From: a virus
Reading direction: 5' to 3' (one strand)
Virus record (IMG/VR): IMGVR_UViG_3300009503_000019
Location: 1-64,000 of that record
Length of the DNA: 64,000 nucleotides
A program made the translations under genes and the position numbers. Numbering within the stretch: the first letter of the stretch is position 1; every line of letters begins with the position of its first letter. Positions 2,096-50,597 of this stretch are shown piece after piece. The notes under the pieces are model-generated. The model saw only the letters and a program-made list of their open reading frames with translations. It was not told the DNA's origin and searched no databases.

Positions 2096-2104
2096 TGATA
2101 TAAT
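2096..2104 (+). promoter_or_regulatory. Extended -10 promoter of sRNA A
   Basis: TGaTATAAT; predicted TSS 2111. Confidence 0.6.
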
Positions 2105-2110
2105 GAAGTT

Positions 2111-2170
2111 AGCTTCCATATCCTTTCCTTCCCATAACCTCATCTTAGGGGGGAAACTCCCCCCTATTGA
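2111..2170 (+). ncRNA. Putative anti-SD small RNA A
   Basis: C/U-rich 35 nt with CAU+CCUUUCCUUCC and CAU+ACCUC modules, then hairpin TAGGGGGGA-aac-TCCCCCCTA (2146-2166). Confidence 0.55.
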
Positions 2171-7976: not shown

Positions 7977-8818
7977 GATATAGAATAGGAGAACAGATTA
8001 TTATTTTCACTACATTATATAATGAACAGGGAAATGTTGTAACTGGTGCAACTATAACTGCGGAGATGGAAAAACCTAATGGTGTATCTGCGGGACCATT
8101 TTTGTCAACAGAAAGTTCATCATTTCCTGGAATTTATAAAATTGAAATTCCGTCTCAAGAATTAGATCAATTAGGCAATTACATAGTTAGAACTCTGTCA
8201 ACGGGTTATTCACCAGAATTTACAACATTTTTCCTGGGACAAAGTGGTGGTGGAGGAGGTGGTGGTATAGGTGCATATAAATTATCAATTGATTGTAAAG
8301 ATCAATATAATCATATTATTTCTGATGCCTTAGTCTCAATAAGAATTGGAAATACAATAATATCTTCGTTGTTAACTGATGTATCAGGACATGCTGAATT
8401 TAATTTAGAAGCCGGAACTTATAATGTTTTAGTTTACAAAGCAGGATATTCATTTGAAAAATATACATTTACAATAAATAATGATGTAACCGCAACAATT
8501 ACCGGCAGCATTCTTTCATTACCTCCCGCAGAAAATCCCGAGTTATGCCGAGTATATATAAGAACAGTAGATTTGGGTTTAGGAGCAGTATCCGGGGTTG
8601 AAATCAATATTAATTATGACGTCCCTGAAGAAATCGGTACTAATTTAGGAATAGATAAATGGACAAAAGTTATTACAGACAATAATGGAGTTGCATATTT
8701 CGACGCGCCTAAAGGAAGCAATGTGTTGGTGCGTGTACATAAAGCTAGTGTTAATGTTAAAGTGAAAATACCTGATAAAGATTCAGTTTATTTGACTGAT
8801 TTATTTGAATTTACATGA
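7973..8818 (+). CDS. Virion protein with Ig/prealbumin-like domains
   Basis: Beta-rich domains separated by a poly-Gly linker; GTYNVLVYKAGY motif. Confidence 0.55.
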   Translation: MRYRIGEQIIIFTTLYNEQGNVVTGATITAEMEKPNGVSAGPFLSTESSSFPGIYKIEIPSQELDQLGNYIVRTLSTGYSPEFTTFFLGQSGGGGGGGIGAYKLSIDCKDQYNHIISDALVSIRIGNTIISSLLTDVSGHAEFNLEAGTYNVLVYKAGYSFEKYTFTINNDVTATITGSILSLPPAENPELCRVYIRTVDLGLGAVSGVEININYDVPEEIGTNLGIDKWTKVITDNNGVAYFDAPKGSNVLVRVHKASVNVKVKIPDKDSVYLTDLFEFT

Positions 8819-8820
8819 TT

Positions 8821-8832
8821 TTTTGTTATAAA
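8821..8832 (+). promoter_or_regulatory. Phage promoter motif TTTTGTTATAAA (drives sRNA B)
   Basis: Exact 12-mer found 8 times upstream of transcription units. Confidence 0.7.
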
Positions 8833-8838
8833 ATAAAT

Positions 8839-8900
8839 AACCTTCATACTTACCTCCTTACCATATCCCTTCCTCATGGGGAGAGCATTTGCTCTCCCTT
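8839..8900 (+). ncRNA. Putative anti-SD small RNA B
   Basis: Contains CAU-ACUU-ACCUCCUUA (16S 3'-end-like) and CAU-AU-CCCUUCCU, then hairpin GGGAGAGC-attt-GCTCTCCC (8879-8898). Confidence 0.6.
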
Positions 8901-8927
8901 AATAAAAAATAATTAAAGGAGGATATA

Positions 8928-9476
8928 ATGGTAAAAAAAATATTCCCAGTAATACTATTTTATTTATGCATAATTTTCCTTATGAAAATATTCTTTGATT
9001 ATAGATTAGTAGAAAAAAAAGAAAATAATTATAATAAAATTTGTTCAATTGAAGAAGAAAGATTTGATCCGATACAATATGATTCAAGATTTAATTTTAT
9101 TGATGATATAAATTATAGAAATGCTATTTTTCATTATGGTAAGAATCTATCTTATTATATAAATGATCCATATGGATTTTTAATTGCATTGTCATGTGTA
9201 GAAAGTTCATTCGGGAAAAATCAATATGGCAAAGATGGAGAAAAAGGACTTTTTCAAATACATCCTTACTGGAAGAGAGTTTATAATTTAGAAGAAATGT
9301 ATCTAGAAAACCCTGAAATTAATGTATATATTGCCGTTGATATTTTAACAAAATTATTCAAAACATATGGAGATCCTTTTATTGTATTAAATGTGTATAA
9401 CACTGGAAATAATAAGAAAAAAAATAAAAAATATATAAATAGATTTCTTGAATGTTATACAAAAATAAATTTTTAA
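8928..9476 (+). CDS. Lytic transglycosylase (SLT) with N-terminal signal-anchor
   Basis: VESS catalytic Glu, GLFQI, YNTG motifs; hydrophobic N-terminus. Confidence 0.85.
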   Translation: MVKKIFPVILFYLCIIFLMKIFFDYRLVEKKENNYNKICSIEEERFDPIQYDSRFNFIDDINYRNAIFHYGKNLSYYINDPYGFLIALSCVESSFGKNQYGKDGEKGLFQIHPYWKRVYNLEEMYLENPEINVYIAVDILTKLFKTYGDPFIVLNVYNTGNNKKKNKKYINRFLECYTKINF

Positions 9477-12431: not shown

Positions 12432-13094
12432 TTATTTTACAGCATTTTTTAATTCTTTTGATTTCAAAATTCGAATTACATCATCTATAATCATCATATT
12501 AAGTAAATAAAACAGTGATTCATATTTCATATTAAAATTTTTTTTACTTAAATATAAATCATTGTTAATCAAAAATATTGTAAATGACGGATAAGATGAC
12601 ATTTCTGAAATACGATTATGTTCTAAAACCGTCCTGTAATGATATAATGTACATACAATTTTTTCCTCTGGAGTTAACAATATAGTTGAATTTACAGGAA
12701 AAATTACATCTTCATATGGCTCTGAATATTTGAATTTAAAGAGATATTTTTTATTTCCAGATATATAACTACAATAAATACGAAAACAATATGTATTGAA
12801 CTTTTTATTAAATGGGTGGTTTTTTTCCAGTGCAATTGTTAAAAGTGAATTAGTAAGGTCTGGAACATACTCCATTTCAATTCCAAGATTATTATCCATA
12901 CGATATGAAAAAATCTTTTCTTCTTCGGCTTCCCGGAAAAGATATTTTAATCTGATTTTTGTTGCATAAAACTTGTTAAAAATAGTATCAATTTCTTTTA
13001 TTTTAATTTTGTATTTTTCTATTATTGATTCAATATCTTCCTTACTAAAATTATATTCTATTCTATTAATTGTTTTCTGCACTTTTGTTAACAT
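12432..13094 (-). CDS. QxxINxxIF-family early protein
   Basis: N-terminal VQKTINRIEY; SD GGAGG. Confidence 0.65.
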   Translation of the reverse strand: MLTKVQKTINRIEYNFSKEDIESIIEKYKIKIKEIDTIFNKFYATKIRLKYLFREAEEEKIFSYRMDNNLGIEMEYVPDLTNSLLTIALEKNHPFNKKFNTYCFRIYCSYISGNKKYLFKFKYSEPYEDVIFPVNSTILLTPEEKIVCTLYHYRTVLEHNRISEMSSYPSFTIFLINNDLYLSKKNFNMKYESLFYLLNMMIIDDVIRILKSKELKNAVK

Positions 13095-13159
13095 TCATGT
13101 TTCCTCCTTTAGTTTTCTAAAAATCAGCGAATTTTCATTATTAAAAATATTTATAATAA

Positions 13160-13233
13160 AACAAAAGGTGAGGAGAATAACTTCTCACCCGGATCCCTTA
13201 AAAAAATATAATAATAGTTGCGAAGGGATCCTT
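13160..13233 (-). ncRNA. Putative two-hairpin small RNA
   Basis: Promoter-like TGTTATAAA at 13241-13249; GGATCCCTT/AAGGGATCC 9-bp stem with a 23-nt loop; second hairpin 13167-13189 followed by a U-tract. Confidence 0.4.
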
Positions 13234-13570
13234 GAAATTGTTTATAACATTTTTAAGAAAAAATTTCTTCCGGAAAAATTAGACAAAAAAATCAATTTTT
13301 ATTACAATTTTTTTATGATTGACCCGTACCGATTTATAATCATTATTAATTCCCCAGAAGATTTATATGAATTAGAAAAAATATCGGAATAAATTTGAAA
13401 ACCTGACGAGGGGAGATATTTAATTATTTTTCCTTCTAATATAAATAAAGAGAATACCTACTTACATGTTATATAGATAGGAATATTATTCTAGAATGTT
13501 TATTTCTTAAGAATGATTCTATTAAATAACAATTAAAATTATTTAAAAGAAATTAAATTATTAAATAAAA

Positions 13571-13597
13571 TAATACCCCCGCTCTGCGGGGGTATTA
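13571..13597. repeat. Perfect 12-bp palindromic hairpin 1 in AT-rich region
   Basis: TAATACCCCCGC-tct-GCGGGGGTATTA. Confidence 0.9.
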
Positions 13598-13668
13598 ATT
13601 ATTTCTTTAACCTTATTTTATTTAATATTAAACACTATTTATTATTTCTTTTTATTATTTATTATTTA

Positions 13669-13695
13669 AATATCCCCCGCGAAGCGGGGGATATT
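13669..13695. repeat. Perfect 12-bp palindromic hairpin 2 in AT-rich region
   Basis: AATATCCCCCGC-gaa-GCGGGGGATATT. Confidence 0.9.
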
Positions 13696-13891
13696 ATTAA
13701 TTATTTTCTTAAATTATTTATTTTATTTTAATATTATGTTTAATATTAAACACTAAACGTTATCTATTATTTTTTTTATTATTTAATATTTTAATATATT
13801 TCTTAGAATCACCTAGGTACTTTTAATTAATTATTTATCTTATCTTATCTCATCTTTTCTCTTCTTATCTTATCTCTTCTTCCTTAAATAA

Positions 13892-15909: not shown

Positions 15910-16060
15910 GTGAACTATTTTTTATGAGCTTCTGTCCTCTTTCAAAGAGAACAAGGCCTCTCCCAGGCCTCTTTAAATTCGATGAAAAAGATGTGGACTA
16001 TCCAGCATTTATTTGCTGGACTTCGCTCTTAGTATCAAAGAGCAAGCTCATCCCGAGCTT
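15910..16060 (-). ncRNA. TnpB omega/re-RNA and element right end
   Basis: Hairpins overlap the tnpB 3' end and finish GAAGC...UAGUUCAC at 15910, the typical IS200/605/607 right-end pattern. The 5' boundary is approximate. Confidence 0.6.
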
Positions 16061-17041
16061 TTGTAGAACTTTCGCCGCATTCAAATCTCTATGCATTTTA
16101 ATTCCACAATACGGGCATATATGCATTCTTTGTTTCAATTCTTTCTTAACAATATTTCCACAATTACAACATATTTGTGAGGTATTTCTCGGGTCAACCT
16201 TTATCACACGCTTTCCATTCTTAATTGCCTTATATTCAATAAAACTTAATAATCTGTTCCATGATGCATCTGTAATTTCTTTATTCAATTCAGACTTATT
16301 TTTCATTAACATCTGCATAATATTTAAATCTTCAACTACAATAACATCATATTTATCAACAATTTGTTTGGAGATTTGATGTAGATAATTATTTCGCAAA
16401 TTAAGTATTTTTTCATGTAATCTTTCAACTTTTATTTTCGCATTCTCATATGCTTTTGTCCCTTTCTTTTTCTTTGAAAGTATTTGTTGTGCCAATTTTA
16501 ATTTCCATTCCATCGCTTTGAAATACTTTGGAAAATCAATTATTGTTCCGTCAGATAAAGTTGCTAGATGCTCAAGACCGACATCTATACCAACAATTTT
16601 CTCTGTATTTATTTCTTTCGGTTGAATATTGTTATCTATTTCCAAACCAACTGATATATAATACTTATCTGCATGTTTTATAACATGAAAGAACTTAATT
16701 CTTGCATTTTCTGGCAAATCCCGGTGCCATTTTATTTTTACATATCCAATCTTTGGAATATAAATTTTTCTATATCTGCTATTTCCGATTAAATCTAATT
16801 TATAAACCTGTGGATAGGTTATGCTTTTATATTTATGTGAGGGCTTGTATTTTGGGAATCCAACCCATTTTTTCTTACCATTTCCATTTAATTTCTTCAA
16901 TTTCTTATTTCTTTTTATTGCATTAAAAAAGTTATCAAATGCGTTTTTAACCCTGAAAACAACATCATATAGAACTTGTGAATAAACTTCTTGATACTCC
17001 GGGAATTCTTTTTTAAGTAATGGTAATTCTTTACTTATAAT
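15998..17041 (-). mobile_element. tnpB: TnpB, 5'-truncated (RuvC triad intact), no transposase seen
   Basis: GIDVG, VVEDL, RDLNAA and two CxxC pairs. The frame is open to 17041 without an ATG; the strong RBS/ATG at 17054 is out of frame (MLNLNYK*). Confidence 0.85.
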
Positions 17042-17085
17042 TTAAATTCAGCATCTGCACCTCCTTTGAATTTTTTACTTTTAAA

Positions 17086-17097
17086 TTTATAACAATT
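17086..17097 (-). promoter_or_regulatory. Promoter motif variant upstream of tnpB
   Basis: ATTGTTATAAA. Confidence 0.6.
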
Positions 17098-24128: not shown

Positions 24129-24656
24129 TTATTCTAATTCTTTTTTCAACTCATCCAATGCTTCAAGTCCATCGGGGACATCTTCAAAATCTTTTTCTTC
24201 ACCATTTTCAAGTACAATTCGGATTCCTTCGGTTGGATTTCCGTAAGTTCGTCCAGTTCTTTTCCATTTATATTTCAAGACACTTCCTTTTGGAATAGTT
24301 ACCAATGCTCCATGGGAAATTCCACAATTCCCCCGTGGACTTTCATAAACACGATATTCACATATTTGTTCAACTTGAGGTTCTAATATTTTGAATGATG
24401 AACTCCCACGGTATCCACATTGAACAAAGATATTATGAGTGATATGATTTTCGGACGGCTTTAGTATAAGAGATCCTTTTTCTGTTTTTATAATCATTGC
24501 GTTCATCGGAAATTCGATTATGTCTTTTTCATCTTTTTTCTTAATGAGCTTGTGACTGACCCATAGACGAAAAGATTTTCGTCCATGGTCCTCAGAGCCG
24601 ACATCTACATAGGGAAATTTCTCCCCGGCCTCATTTTGTTTGTAGTTCACTATCAT
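24129..24656 (-). CDS. Hypothetical protein
   Basis: Own promoter, structured leader, AAGGAGG RBS and terminator. Confidence 0.75.
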   Translation of the reverse strand: MIVNYKQNEAGEKFPYVDVGSEDHGRKSFRLWVSHKLIKKKDEKDIIEFPMNAMIIKTEKGSLILKPSENHITHNIFVQCGYRGSSSFKILEPQVEQICEYRVYESPRGNCGISHGALVTIPKGSVLKYKWKRTGRTYGNPTEGIRIVLENGEEKDFEDVPDGLEALDELKKELE

Positions 24657-24739
24657 TTTTACCTCCTTTTTCCCCCATTGCGCATGGGATTAGAACCCTT
24701 CGCGTGGGGGAAATAATTTTGTATTTTCATTACAATTAA

Positions 24740-24751
24740 TTTATAACAAAA
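24740..24751 (-). promoter_or_regulatory. Promoter motif TTTTGTTATAAA
   Basis: Exact motif. Confidence 0.7.
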
Positions 24752-44500: not shown

Positions 44501-46039
44501 ATGAAAATTTTTAGACGAGACCAAAAATTAGGAACTGATATTTCACATTATCTTGACAAAATAGGTAAAGAATTTGCATACTTATCTGGATATAGTTTAA
44601 GTTTGGATGATATAACACCAATTGATTTATCTGATATAAATCGTAAAATCAGAGAAACTATGCCGAAATTATCTTCTGATAAAGAAAGGCAAAAATTTTT
44701 ATCAGAATTAGCAGATAAAATAGATCAAAGGGTAATGTCTTCTAAAAGCCGATTAGTAGAGGCAATTAAATCTCGTGCAAGAGGAAAAGTTATTGATGCT
44801 AGACAAATTATAGGTGCACCTATTGTTGCAACTGATATTAATGACAATATTATACCCGCTCCTGTGAATACCAGTTATGCAGCAGGAATGTCTTTTTCAG
44901 ATTGGTTTAAATCAATATTTGGAGGAAGAAAAGCGGCAATAGATAAAGTAACTTCAGTGAGTGAACCTGGGATGATGACTAAAGAATTATTTTCAGCAAT
45001 GTCTTCATTTCGTATAGTAGAGCATGATTGCGGAACTAAAAATGGTGTTGAAATGGATTTAAATGAAGCGGATGCGTTAGATTATTGTTTAGCAGAAAAT
45101 ATTTATTCTCATGGAAGATTAATAGCAAAAAGGAATTCACCATTAACTTCAGATGTTGTAAATGCCTTAGTTGCACACAAAATAAATAGAGTTAAAGTTA
45201 GAACACCATTAACATGTGAATCCATAGATGGAGTTTGTCAATTATGTTATGGATTGGATAAATTCGGGCAATTTCCATCAATTGGAGAATATGTTGGAAT
45301 TAAAGCTGCACAATATATAGGCGAGCCGATGACACAATTAATTCTTTCAAGAGCCCATTTTGGTGGAACCAAAGGTGCACCATCATTACAGGGATATAAA
45401 TTATTTGAAAACATATTAAATTTTTCACCTTCAATTCGTCCTCGTGCAACACTTGCTAAATTAGATGGGAGAGTTCAAAAAATTTTGATTAATCCGGACG
45501 GATCTAAAGATGTGTTAATAGATGGAGTTAGTCATCCTGTTTCAAGAGAAAGTGTGGTTACAGTTAAAACTGGAGAAATTGTAAAAAAAGGACAACAAAT
45601 TTCAGAAGGAATTCCGCATCCTGTAGATGTATATGCTACTAGAGGGATGATGGAAATGAGAAAATATTTGTCAGAGCAATTAAGAAAAATATATTATGAT
45701 AATGGACTTAAAGTGGATAAAAGAATGTTTGATGTATTGGCAAAGGCTATGACAAATACCGGAATTATTACTGATCCTGGTGATTCTGATTATATAATAG
45801 GAGATAAAGTTTCAATAGATAAAATAGAAAATAAAAATAAAGAATTGAAGCACCCAATAAAATATACACCTGTTTTTCGTGGATTGCCCCATCAAGTCTT
45901 GCTTTCAACAGATTGGTTGAATAGAATTTCAAGAAAGGATATAAAAAATACATTGGTAGAAGGAACGATTAGGCAGTGGACTGGAGATATTTCAAGGTAT
46001 CCAATACCTGCATTCGCTTATGGAGTTGAGCTAAAGTGA
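38543..46039 (+). CDS. rpoBC: Fused beta-beta' multi-subunit-type RNA polymerase, intein-containing
   Basis: Beta motifs: GYNYEDAI, GDKLVGRFGEKG, NPLSVISRIN. Beta' motifs: LNRAPSLH, NADFDGD, bridge helix, GEPMTQL trigger loop, C-terminal Zn Cys. Junction at about 41510. Confidence 0.97.
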   Translation: MLKGYIEAIQNLFPIDSPNYTINVSNITPKIKEDVFIPENIKKMKLEGKILTTPIYADVTITDKNGKVISSRKQMKIAEIPALIPATNSYLGGKGKEITILGQFRFKPGIYTIIPSSGNVKTTFHLKGTSFHLTSDAGKLYFTVDSKHFAIYPILKFFGITDNDIINNFGNKFLEDNKIDISPAEMERLIKRFYKNISRDQRSEDEISINDIITYFSGNIFDPNVNKVTLGQDFSQLNKETLLAAIKKFLNVSTGVEPPDSKDLLIFKRFHNVNDFIKERIEGLKWQLKKKIQRNLELHPEEIRRVLPTGLLSKPSFELLNSSVASMEKYTNPASILSAMTKMTYLGEGGLQTEYAATPEMRNFNFSMLSTLDPIQMPESEKIGLVFHAALGANVDNQGNITKIVFNHKTGKYETISGTDFWIKNIAFPDQYENGKFKNPNSVKVMNEGKIKYVKSKDVDYILPMSTSFSMLSSLIPMISSFHPTRALIASKMIGQALALKNKEAPLVQSEIPSELLEIRKQLHPELTGALSDHLEHSNSFEELLGAKYSVVSPVNGTVTLVSKDEIVITDKKGEKYRFPLYNNFPVYPDSFIHQEPIVKVGDKVSKGMPLAKSNFTDGKTLALGTNLLTAYIPFKGYNYEDAIVISESASKKLTSERIIHEYFEIREGMILDKNKFRAIFPTLLLEENARKLDDDGVVKKGAIVKKGEILIAALMPRIITPDEYQLMRIHRKLVPKYRDASLVWNRENDGEVIEVRKTRHSISLLIKTSDPAEIGDKLVGRFGEKGLIAYIVPDSEMPRTKDGKVIDVIFNPLSVISRINTGQLVELALGKVAQKQGKPIYVPLFTKQNYVEYAKKLLKDHGLSDTETLIDPKTGKEIPNVMVGPKYIFKLEHEIKDKLDARYKGSYDMDLAPARQGEEGAKALDTYTAYGLFAHGALANLKEMATYKAEKNDAFWDAIENGFMLPAPKPTFAMDKFLAMLKSAGINVEKQGTTFRLLPLTDKDVTEIAKIKIENPRTVSGAELKPEKGGLFDPALGGLTGTRWGYIQLAEPMPNPIVEKALLQILQLSSAQFEDLIAGKTVNGIQGIEGLKQYLKNLDIDKLITQYQEMAKNARLDELDKYNRIIRFLKGLKEAKIKPESLIITKIPVIPPKMRPIYVKDDQVIYSPFNDLYKHLLMANELLERTKELPEEHRASIRLKAYEALKAIAGLTDPISPAFSKRPVQGILSMIAGPTPKLGYFQSKLARKEQDLVGRTAIIPEPDLHPDEVGLPYEIAWKIFEPFVIRKLIQQGYTKIQAVKNVEDRTPIAKAALEAVAKERLVLLNRAPSLHKYNILAFKPRLIEGNAMKIPPLVVVGFNADFDGDEQLGSILISVKKDFKLQKWYLDLIKTGARIMFDKNAKIPIKSDREYFIINLADFPRLHLVASKNHIDFYAVPDDIEVLAYDEKIHTISWQKATSWSLHHKRKICFINLKSGKQIVSDDDPRAVYGIDPVTLEYGRWRPAESIGKLVPVVKNLKLQEYVKQISTKGCPYWKLKNCLKETIELNEEFGYLLGYIIGDGWISYTKDEEKNVSIAIDPKNSELKKHLISITKKLFNKKYNLISEQKVSKSKWQSSKITINSKQLAWLISPWIGKNAENKHLPPFTLISPEEFRRGLLAGLIDSDGSISISHAKSKPQLLINLSTASIRLAQEIQLLAKSLGIPASITAYNGGMKNSKNYMINFSNYHFQKANLNIKHPEKRRKLLSISIESSPGLMSHDLVPFNSTLAEIIMKRINRNKEWSLYVIVQRYKNLNYITRSSALKILKIVDNDDPLFLRWKQIVLNDSITWDPVVSYEQTDIEEDGYDITVPGYETFMNIEGVILSNTMTIHTPVTQEALEEARRLLPSNNWVHEAKGTILLMPRHEAIIGIYRLTSEGRQLNITFNNEKEVEDAYKANKINFNDIVNVKGIGRTSFGRIIVNKVLPPELRDYKSQIDGSKLHDILMKIFRRDQKLGTDISHYLDKIGKEFAYLSGYSLSLDDITPIDLSDINRKIRETMPKLSSDKERQKFLSELADKIDQRVMSSKSRLVEAIKSRARGKVIDARQIIGAPIVATDINDNIIPAPVNTSYAAGMSFSDWFKSIFGGRKAAIDKVTSVSEPGMMTKELFSAMSSFRIVEHDCGTKNGVEMDLNEADALDYCLAENIYSHGRLIAKRNSPLTSDVVNALVAHKINRVKVRTPLTCESIDGVCQLCYGLDKFGQFPSIGEYVGIKAAQYIGEPMTQLILSRAHFGGTKGAPSLQGYKLFENILNFSPSIRPRATLAKLDGRVQKILINPDGSKDVLIDGVSHPVSRESVVTVKTGEIVKKGQQISEGIPHPVDVYATRGMMEMRKYLSEQLRKIYYDNGLKVDKRMFDVLAKAMTNTGIITDPGDSDYIIGDKVSIDKIENKNKELKHPIKYTPVFRGLPHQVLLSTDWLNRISRKDIKNTLVEGTIRQWTGDISRYPIPAFAYGVELK
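42641..44143 (+). mobile_element. 501-aa intein with LAGLIDADG homing endonuclease
   Basis: Removing it restores NADFDGD-TMTIH. Contains YLLGYIIGDG and LLAGLIDSDG; ends YDITVPG...ILSN/T. Confidence 0.9.
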
Positions 46040-46506
46040 TTGTATGTAAAAATTATACTATAGTTTCTGGTGTTGGTAGAGATGAAGATGAACTTGTTGC
46101 ATTTGATAAAGCATTAAAAAGTGCAGGATTGCATAGATTTAATTTAGTGCCTGTTTCAAGTGTGTTTCCTACTTTAGCTGAATATCATCCGCCAAGAGAT
46201 TTGAAGGAACTTGATCGTGGGGCAATCATTCATGTTGTTTTGAGTAAAATAAATGTGAAAAAAGAATTTGTAGATATATCGGCAGGAATTTGTTTAGCAA
46301 TTTCCAAAATAAGTGGTGGAGGGATCATAAGTGAATATTCGGGAGAAGTAAATAAGGAAAAATGTAAATCTATTCTAAGGGAAAGAGCCAATAAAATTGC
46401 AGAAACTCACGATCTTTTTGATATGACTATGGAATTTGAAATAATGAGTGCAAAATCTAATCCTGTAACTTATACTTGTTGTATAGCGGCAGTAGTTTTA
46501 TGGTGA
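46036..46506 (+). CDS. pdaD: Pyruvoyl-dependent arginine decarboxylase
   Basis: AFDKAL..AG...FNLVPVSSVFP self-cleavage motif; GTGA overlap with the RNAP stop. Confidence 0.88.
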   Translation: MIVCKNYTIVSGVGRDEDELVAFDKALKSAGLHRFNLVPVSSVFPTLAEYHPPRDLKELDRGAIIHVVLSKINVKKEFVDISAGICLAISKISGGGIISEYSGEVNKEKCKSILRERANKIAETHDLFDMTMEFEIMSAKSNPVTYTCCIAAVVLW

Positions 46507-49908: not shown

Positions 49909-49937
49909 TTGAAAAAATTATGAGGTTTTATTAAAAT
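49909..49937 (+). promoter_or_regulatory. Sigma70-type promoter of sRNA C
   Basis: TTGAAA-17-TAAAAT; predicted TSS 49944; no ORF downstream on this strand. Confidence 0.65.
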
Positions 49938-49943
49938 GTTTTC

Positions 49944-50013
49944 AGCCCATGCCCTTCTCTTCCTCCTCCATACACGCCTCCTGCAGGAGGGAGACAACAA
50001 TCTCCCTCCTGAT
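49944..50013 (+). ncRNA. Putative anti-SD small RNA C
   Basis: CAU-GCCCUUCUCUUCCUCCUC and CAU-ACACG-CCUCCUG, then an 11-bp hairpin at 49984-50011. Confidence 0.6.
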
Positions 50014-50421: not shown

Positions 50422-50470
50422 TGTTAAGAAATTTTTGAAAAAAAAGAAAAAAATAAGTTTTTAACTTTTA

Positions 50471-50553
50471 TGCGTCGGCTCCCCCCGCCGTCTCTTCCTT
50501 ATCACCTCTCTTGGGCTTATACCCATTGGAGCGGCCGCAGGGAGCCGAACGCA
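50471..50553 (-). ncRNA. GC-rich structured RNA D
   Basis: 13-bp closing stem (one bulge), inner stems, U.G pair favouring the minus strand; purine loop GAGAGGUGAUAAGGAAGAG. Confidence 0.6.
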
Positions 50554-50597
50554 AAAATCTTTCCAATATACTTATAACATTTTTTAAGGAGAAAAAA

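Follow-up and report, generated by a model that had tools for sequence, protein, structure and literature searches.

The stretch of DNA analyzed here (the window) covers the opening 64 kb of a linear virus record of 121 kb with 30% GC and an estimated completeness of 66%; all four sequencing runs containing the record are hot-spring metagenomes. The phage encodes a terminase, a major capsid protein, a sigma70-like factor and a fused beta/beta' RNA polymerase, the nearest cultured matches of which (about 31%) are found in Vibrio phage D181 and Salmonella phage Arash. The polymerase has 2498 aa both in the window phage and in a second, related phage, where it shows intein/LAGLIDADG matches (L021:1-3906) that are absent from the polymerase of a third phage. 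A gene for a pyruvoyl-dependent arginine decarboxylase (window 46036-46506) lies immediately 3' of the polymerase gene in all three phages. Starts led by a Shine-Dalgarno (SD) sequence were found for 128 of the 174 called phage genes and about ten genes are leaderless; leaderless operon heads (Table 1) are also present in the relatives. The SD-led start of a TnpB-like gene (window 15998-17090, minus strand) runs into an early stop, so that a 300-aa frame remains, and the relatives carry a 394-aa form with 90% identity to the window version. A very AT-rich gap at window 13500-13800, harboring two near-identical 12-bp GC hairpins (13571 and 13669), is a possible replication origin. Scans across species genomes with the terminase and TnpB in search of a host gave no match, and look-ups in atlas, cluster and phage-collection resources named no host.

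The element at 8821-8899 (element B) reads as described in the initial annotation, i.e., a promoter motif followed by a tract of CAU and anti-SD sequence and then by a GC hairpin. The promoter motif TTTTGTTATAAA (8821-8832) is the commonest one of the phage, with 10 copies within the window as against 0.19 in shuffles and 11 copies in the 121-kb contig as against 0.38 expected, 8 of these 11 being placed 20-84 nt before SD-led genes. The same motif precedes the SD-led minus-strand operons and is retained in the orthologue of B in a related phage (L015:9888-9914). Structured leaders ending at the SD follow other early-type promoters of the window (24656-24740 and 13094-13242, both on the minus strand). 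The tract of B begins seven bases past the -10 hexamer, and the start of the RNA at ~8839 is a prediction based on the -10 spacing. The tract was predicted to be 97% unpaired at both 37 and 65 °C, and ACCUCCUUA within it is identical to the final 9 nt of E. coli 16S rRNA, as had been recognized earlier. The U-tract after the hairpin is limited to UU, and the hairpin may function as a weak intrinsic terminator or as a 3' protective stem. The combination of promoter, unpaired tract and hairpin confirms B as a real element, a putative RNA gene with a predicted transcript of ~60 nt.

Table 1. Positions of element B, its neighbor and siblings, and the leaderless operon heads (window numbering unless stated)
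Feature	Position	Strand	Details
RNA B promoter, sigma70-type	8805..8832	+	-35-like TTGAAT 8805-8810; extended -10 TG-n-TATAAA 8824-8832
RNA B single-stranded C/U tract	8839..8877	+	39 nt, nearly G-free
Tract B module 1	CAU 8845; anti-SD 8852-8860		ACCUCCUUA
Tract B module 2	CAU 8862; 8867-8874		CCCUUCCU
RNA B 3' hairpin	8878..8899; hairpin 8879-8898	+	GC-rich, 9 bp; 8 Watson-Crick pairs plus G.U; z -4.3
Antisense ORF, 29 codons	8788..8877	-	Side product of the anti-RBS sequence; lacks conservation
SLT lytic transglycosylase gene	8915..9476	+	182 aa, hydrophobic N-terminus; SD 8915-8923, start 8928; Pfam PF01464, E 2e-13
Sibling RNA A	2096..2166	+	Extended -10 2096-2104; tract 2111-2145; hairpin 2146-2166
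Sibling RNA C	49909..50011	+	TTGAAA-17-TAAAAT; tract 49944-49983; hairpin 49984-50011
Leaderless operon heads	3304, 33105, 47911, 50386(-), 51842; contig 75662, 105524		ATG 7-10 nt past the -10 box

The earlier statement that no ORF follows the promoter is only half true, since the RNA stretch itself is non-coding but an SLT lytic transglycosylase gene with a strong SD, absent from the first reading, starts 29 nt past the hairpin and 96 nt past the promoter. The gene is situated behind a weak terminator. No late promoter adjoining its ribosome-binding site (RBS) was evident in the 29-nt gap, the late-promoter motif of the phage polymerase being undefined.

Two siblings of B (RNAs A and C), which had been proposed to form a family of three with it, were confirmed in the window. 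Only nine strong GC hairpins are present in the contig; those of A, B and C (2146, 8879, and 49984) rank highest for C content of the 5' flank, and each of the three tracts lies within the top 0.06% of 35-nt windows by C-minus-G. No fourth copy was found in the contig, including by a covariance-model search. The three share the same design, as claimed, whereas their predicted lengths are similar rather than equal (about 56, 60, and 68 nt). Each comes after the end of a plus-strand gene: A sits 3' of the gene for the phage sigma-like protein, with a leaderless next gene that has its own promoter, and C is placed between convergent genes. As a further correction, A lacks CCUCC and its anti-SD is weak.

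Starting from homologues of the flanking proteins, the analysis reached two additional phage species, together with strain variants thereof, with 77-90% (sigma-like protein) and 86-91% (terminase) identity to the window phage. The search of related contigs for the promoter-tract-hairpin architecture, as envisaged in the initial annotation, revealed 11 further elements of the same design in these hot-spring phages, bringing the total to 14 members from three or more phage species, with predicted lengths of 52-76 nt and tracts of 29-48 nt. A promoter-like site was present directly upstream in 14 of 14 members (score 8-11.5 against a background of 4.9±2.5, the 5' ends having been chosen partly from the promoter), and the antisense side scored 2.5-8, below the sense side at every member where it could be scored. 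The locus before the SLT gene is occupied in all three phages, as is the locus after the 663-aa gene, where two of them have tandem pairs; the tandem copies in L019 and L021 have one promoter each. Element A was found in two phages (orthologue L011/L015) and is missing from that locus in two others (L007, L010), orthologues of C were identified in L017, L019, and L021, and one phage carries three extra copies on the opposite strand within 20 kb, with a poorer fit to the design and one tract largely paired. Several members stand alone, namely C, the tandem copies, and the L007 member, which has a divergent upstream gene, a proper U-tract and, downstream, a separate gene that is leaderless. Judged from this distribution, copies are gained, lost and duplicated between phages, and their tracts diverge.

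In the C group, all stem pairs of the hairpin are retained with one two-sided (compensatory) and one one-sided change, although stem conservation was equaled in 44 of 500 shuffles and the sequences are too few for significance. RNAalifold on a MAFFT alignment missed the hairpin because the stems were out of register. The tracts diverge faster than the neighboring genes, yet blocks are common to members: an 18-nt block is identical in C and L017 beside a gene with 75% identity, suggesting an outside constraint, and 11 nt recur between module 2 of B and an element that another phage carries at a different locus. A covariance model built on the members, which matches these by construction, found no member in five distant RNA-polymerase phages (132-194 kb; 37-40% sigma identity), and the family therefore looks confined to one small phage lineage. 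Pattern scans of viral contigs yielded one unrelated chance match and one blank, and BLASTN against cultured phages gave chance matches only. Comparison with Rfam, including the RsaE/RoxS, LhrC, and csRNA models, gave no match at the gathering score and only chance-level hits to unrelated families (E 0.3-5). As far as sequence can tell, this is a real, uncatalogued and conserved family of putative small-RNA genes. Related phages carry a Csx3-like gene (L007:12587-12706) and a PF27247 gene (L015:15530-15904), which may serve as counter-defence against type III CRISPR. At L007:12060-12700, some ten GC-rich hairpins are densely packed and overlap a called 176-aa ORF, possibly forming a large structured RNA.

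The sequence content of the tracts was evaluated against mono- and dinucleotide shuffles, with the relatives alone as an out-of-sample set. CCUCC occurred 11-12 times in the relatives as against 3.7-5.0 in shuffles (p 0.002-0.01), modules ending in anti-AUG or anti-GUG were modestly enriched (p 0.01-0.04), and CAU was not (p 0.26-0.54), while in the window genome CAU was found 8 times as against 3.2-4.4 (p 0.003-0.02); these p-values are optimistic, as the members are related to each other. CAU is present in A, B, and C and missing from four of the relatives' members, among them the L015 orthologue of B. Hence, the two tandem CAU plus anti-SD modules noted earlier hold for B but not as a general rule, and the enrichment of CCUCC without that of CAU indicates that the anti-SD is the trait of the family, which the anti-start codon extends in some members only. 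In the tandem modules, the geometry of CAU before anti-SD is inseparable from its mirror image. In nine members, a run of 6-9 nt matches the 3' tail of E. coli 16S rRNA exactly, often immediately before the hairpin, and the core preceding the hairpin alternates between ACACCUCCU and ACGCCUCCU, both of which pair, by inspection, with AGGAGGUGU. On the antisense side, a strong SD and ATG open frames of 19 and 29 codons at B and of 20-28 codons at A. Conservation of such a frame, the contrary case raised in the initial annotation, was not seen: none exists at the L015 orthologue, and the frames elsewhere are unrelated, 2-41 codons long or absent, which removes a peptide or toxin reading.

Predicted binding to the SD-led start regions of the phage exceeded that of shuffles for B (4/100) and C (1/100), and it was far weaker on leaderless than on SD-led start regions (-5 against -14 kcal/mol); A was no stronger an SD binder than its own shuffles (21/100). 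No specific target was found among the start regions of the phage's own genome, where the best site did not outperform shuffles (10-25 of 100), matches did not extend beyond SD cores of 9-11 nt, and no member preferred the genes of its own phage. The complement of the module spacers is richer in G than the phage spacers (46% vs 18% G in the last 6 nt). As the spacer and start-codon parts have no match in any phage start region and their G content is higher, the targets are, weakly, more likely to be host mRNAs than single phage genes. With most phage genes being SD-led, a blanket anti-SD activity would affect the phage itself. As a target, rRNA was rejected, the best helices lying at the purine-rich 444-458 of 16S rRNA of E. 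coli (surrogate host) and mostly within the shuffle range. A structured, GC-rich RNA (RNA D; window 50445-50575, minus strand) lies 3' of a TGTTATAAG promoter and is conserved in the second phage (L021:8450-8610, minus strand). A long stem closes the structure, and its purine-rich internal loop resembles an SD. Pairing of RNA D with the C-rich RNAs is non-specific, and it was discarded as a specific partner because all members pair with it equally.

Taken directly from the sequences and their predicted folds are the promoter motif, the non-coding architecture, its conservation across related phages, the accessibility of the tract and the anti-SD enrichment. These agree with the initial proposal of a promoter-driven, plus-strand, non-coding family with an exposed anti-SD, and on balance we favor the reading that the members are phage-made sibling anti-RBS small RNAs acting in trans, in the manner of csRNAs or RoxS. 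RNA polymerase would initiate at the strong extended -10 promoter of the phage, and transcription would end, or the RNA be trimmed, at the GC hairpin to give an RNA of 52-76 nt; a discrete RNA is not assured, since U-tracts are mostly missing. The exposed, unfolded C/U tract of ~40 nt would seed on SD sequences through its CCUCC-type cores, and the adjoining letters (the spacer and sometimes CAU against the start codon) would lengthen the duplex and confer a preference for certain mRNAs. The duplex would then exclude the 30S subunit and reduce translation. A more specific version is tentative and rather doubtful: each module of 15-20 nt would be the complement of one host translation start (e.g., of a defence gene), and an arms race between phage and host would drive the shuffling, duplication and replacement of modules.

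Element B could also be mainly a cis-acting leader of the SLT gene, in which read-through RNA folds the tract over the SD and start codon and restrains the lytic enzyme; we regard this as an unlikely main role. A precedent exists in T4, where the RBS of gene e, which encodes a lytic enzyme (lysozyme), is sequestered in long transcripts (PMC3014915). The meager UU after the hairpin and the short distance from the promoter to the SLT start are compatible with such read-through, whose predicted fold buries the SD and AUG of the SLT gene (unpaired probability 0.22-0.28 at 37-70 °C). The L015 orthologue is likewise predicted to bury the SLT RBS (0.13), and its own RBS takes rank 7 among 147 swapped start regions. 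However, the SLT RBS of the window ranks 78 of 147, and pairing between tract and SLT RBS is therefore generic in the window genome. Moreover, for A, C, and the tandem copies there is no SD-led gene on which such a leader could act, and the L007 element precedes a leaderless SLT gene that has its own promoter. The RNA persists in this third phage. A cis effect may be real at B but cannot explain the family. The cis role and the trans role could coexist at B.

It is improbable that the RNAs shut off the SD-led early genes of the phage at the early-to-late switch and spare the leaderless operon heads, as an RNA counterpart of T4 RegB, a protein that inactivates SD-led early mRNAs (PMC3014915). 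Early-type genes on the minus strand contain GGAGGTG more often (19/80 vs 4/66, p 0.005), C slightly favors minus-strand RBSs (p 0.02), and leaderless genes are present and bind poorly. However, the plain 16S tail has the same bias as C, B shows no preference for early-type over structural genes (p 0.42), its promoter motif is shared with early-type genes, and most structural genes, including that of the major capsid protein, are SD-led.

An unstructured, C-rich RNA that leads into a hairpin lacking a U-tract resembles rut sites. Together with the position of A, B, and C after plus-strand genes, this would fit a protein-binding element, either a terminator that loads Rho for the upstream gene or a decoy that captures Rho or ribosomal protein S1. 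This is very improbable, as a terminator needs no promoter of its own, no gene in the same orientation lies upstream of the L007 member, tracts of 29-48 nt are short for Rho loading, and CCUCC is enriched above composition. Expression of the minus strand, either as a small peptide gene in a type I toxin-antitoxin arrangement or as a GGA-rich CsrA sponge, is scarcely credible despite the strong SD and ATG frames at A and B, given the absence of a conserved small ORF and the lower antisense promoter scores.

C-rich small RNAs that block RBSs are well established in bacteria (PMC4409812, PMC4507080), in agreement with the background given in the initial annotation. In Streptococcus pneumoniae, the siblings csRNA1-5 pair with RBS and AUG, and the SD-AUG spacer sets specificity on comC (PMC4507080). 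A, B, and C similarly combine anti-RBS with anti-AUG; however, csRNAs are chromosomal, CiaR-controlled, streptococcal, 87-151 nt long and highly alike, whereas the phage RNAs derive from a hot-spring metagenome virus record, are shorter (52-76 nt) and divergent, and do not have the anti-AUG in every member. In RsaE/RoxS and other C-rich RNAs of Bacillota, several unpaired C-rich motifs pair with G-rich SDs and block initiation (PMC4409812). Unpaired, SD-complementary C-rich motifs are likewise present in the phage tracts, which differ in having no sequence or Rfam similarity, a long 5' single strand with one hairpin, a phage origin and a fast turnover of copies. The Cuckoo/CcsR RNAs of Alphaproteobacteria, whose 2-4 hairpins each display an invariant CCUCCUCCC in the loop (PMC4615179), are also modular, multicopy, tandem anti-SD RNAs, but the phage RNAs have a single 3' hairpin and varying motifs outside the stem rather than CCUCCUCCC loops. 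With T4 gene e and RegB, the family has in common a phage control exerted at the SD, though the e leader acts only in cis and RegB is a protein, whereas the family described here is likely a free-standing, multicopy RNA. Phage RNAs acting in trans on host or phage mRNAs include VpdS, PreS, 24B_1, and phiR1-37 misc_4, none of which, from the parts of the source consulted, is a multicopy C-rich anti-SD family (PMC12197685). A literature search of incomplete coverage found no paper on a phage-encoded anti-SD RNA family of such design, in line with the initial remark, which knew of no described phage family of this kind.

Virulent-type phages are known to seize host translation mostly through proteins. 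If the trans reading is true, multicopy, minimal anti-RBS RNAs would represent an RNA route to the takeover of host translation and a natural counterpart of synthetic antisense oligomers against start regions, as well as a very small, heat-tolerant scaffold. With a host genome in hand, the tract sequences would predict their own targets, which makes the idea directly testable.
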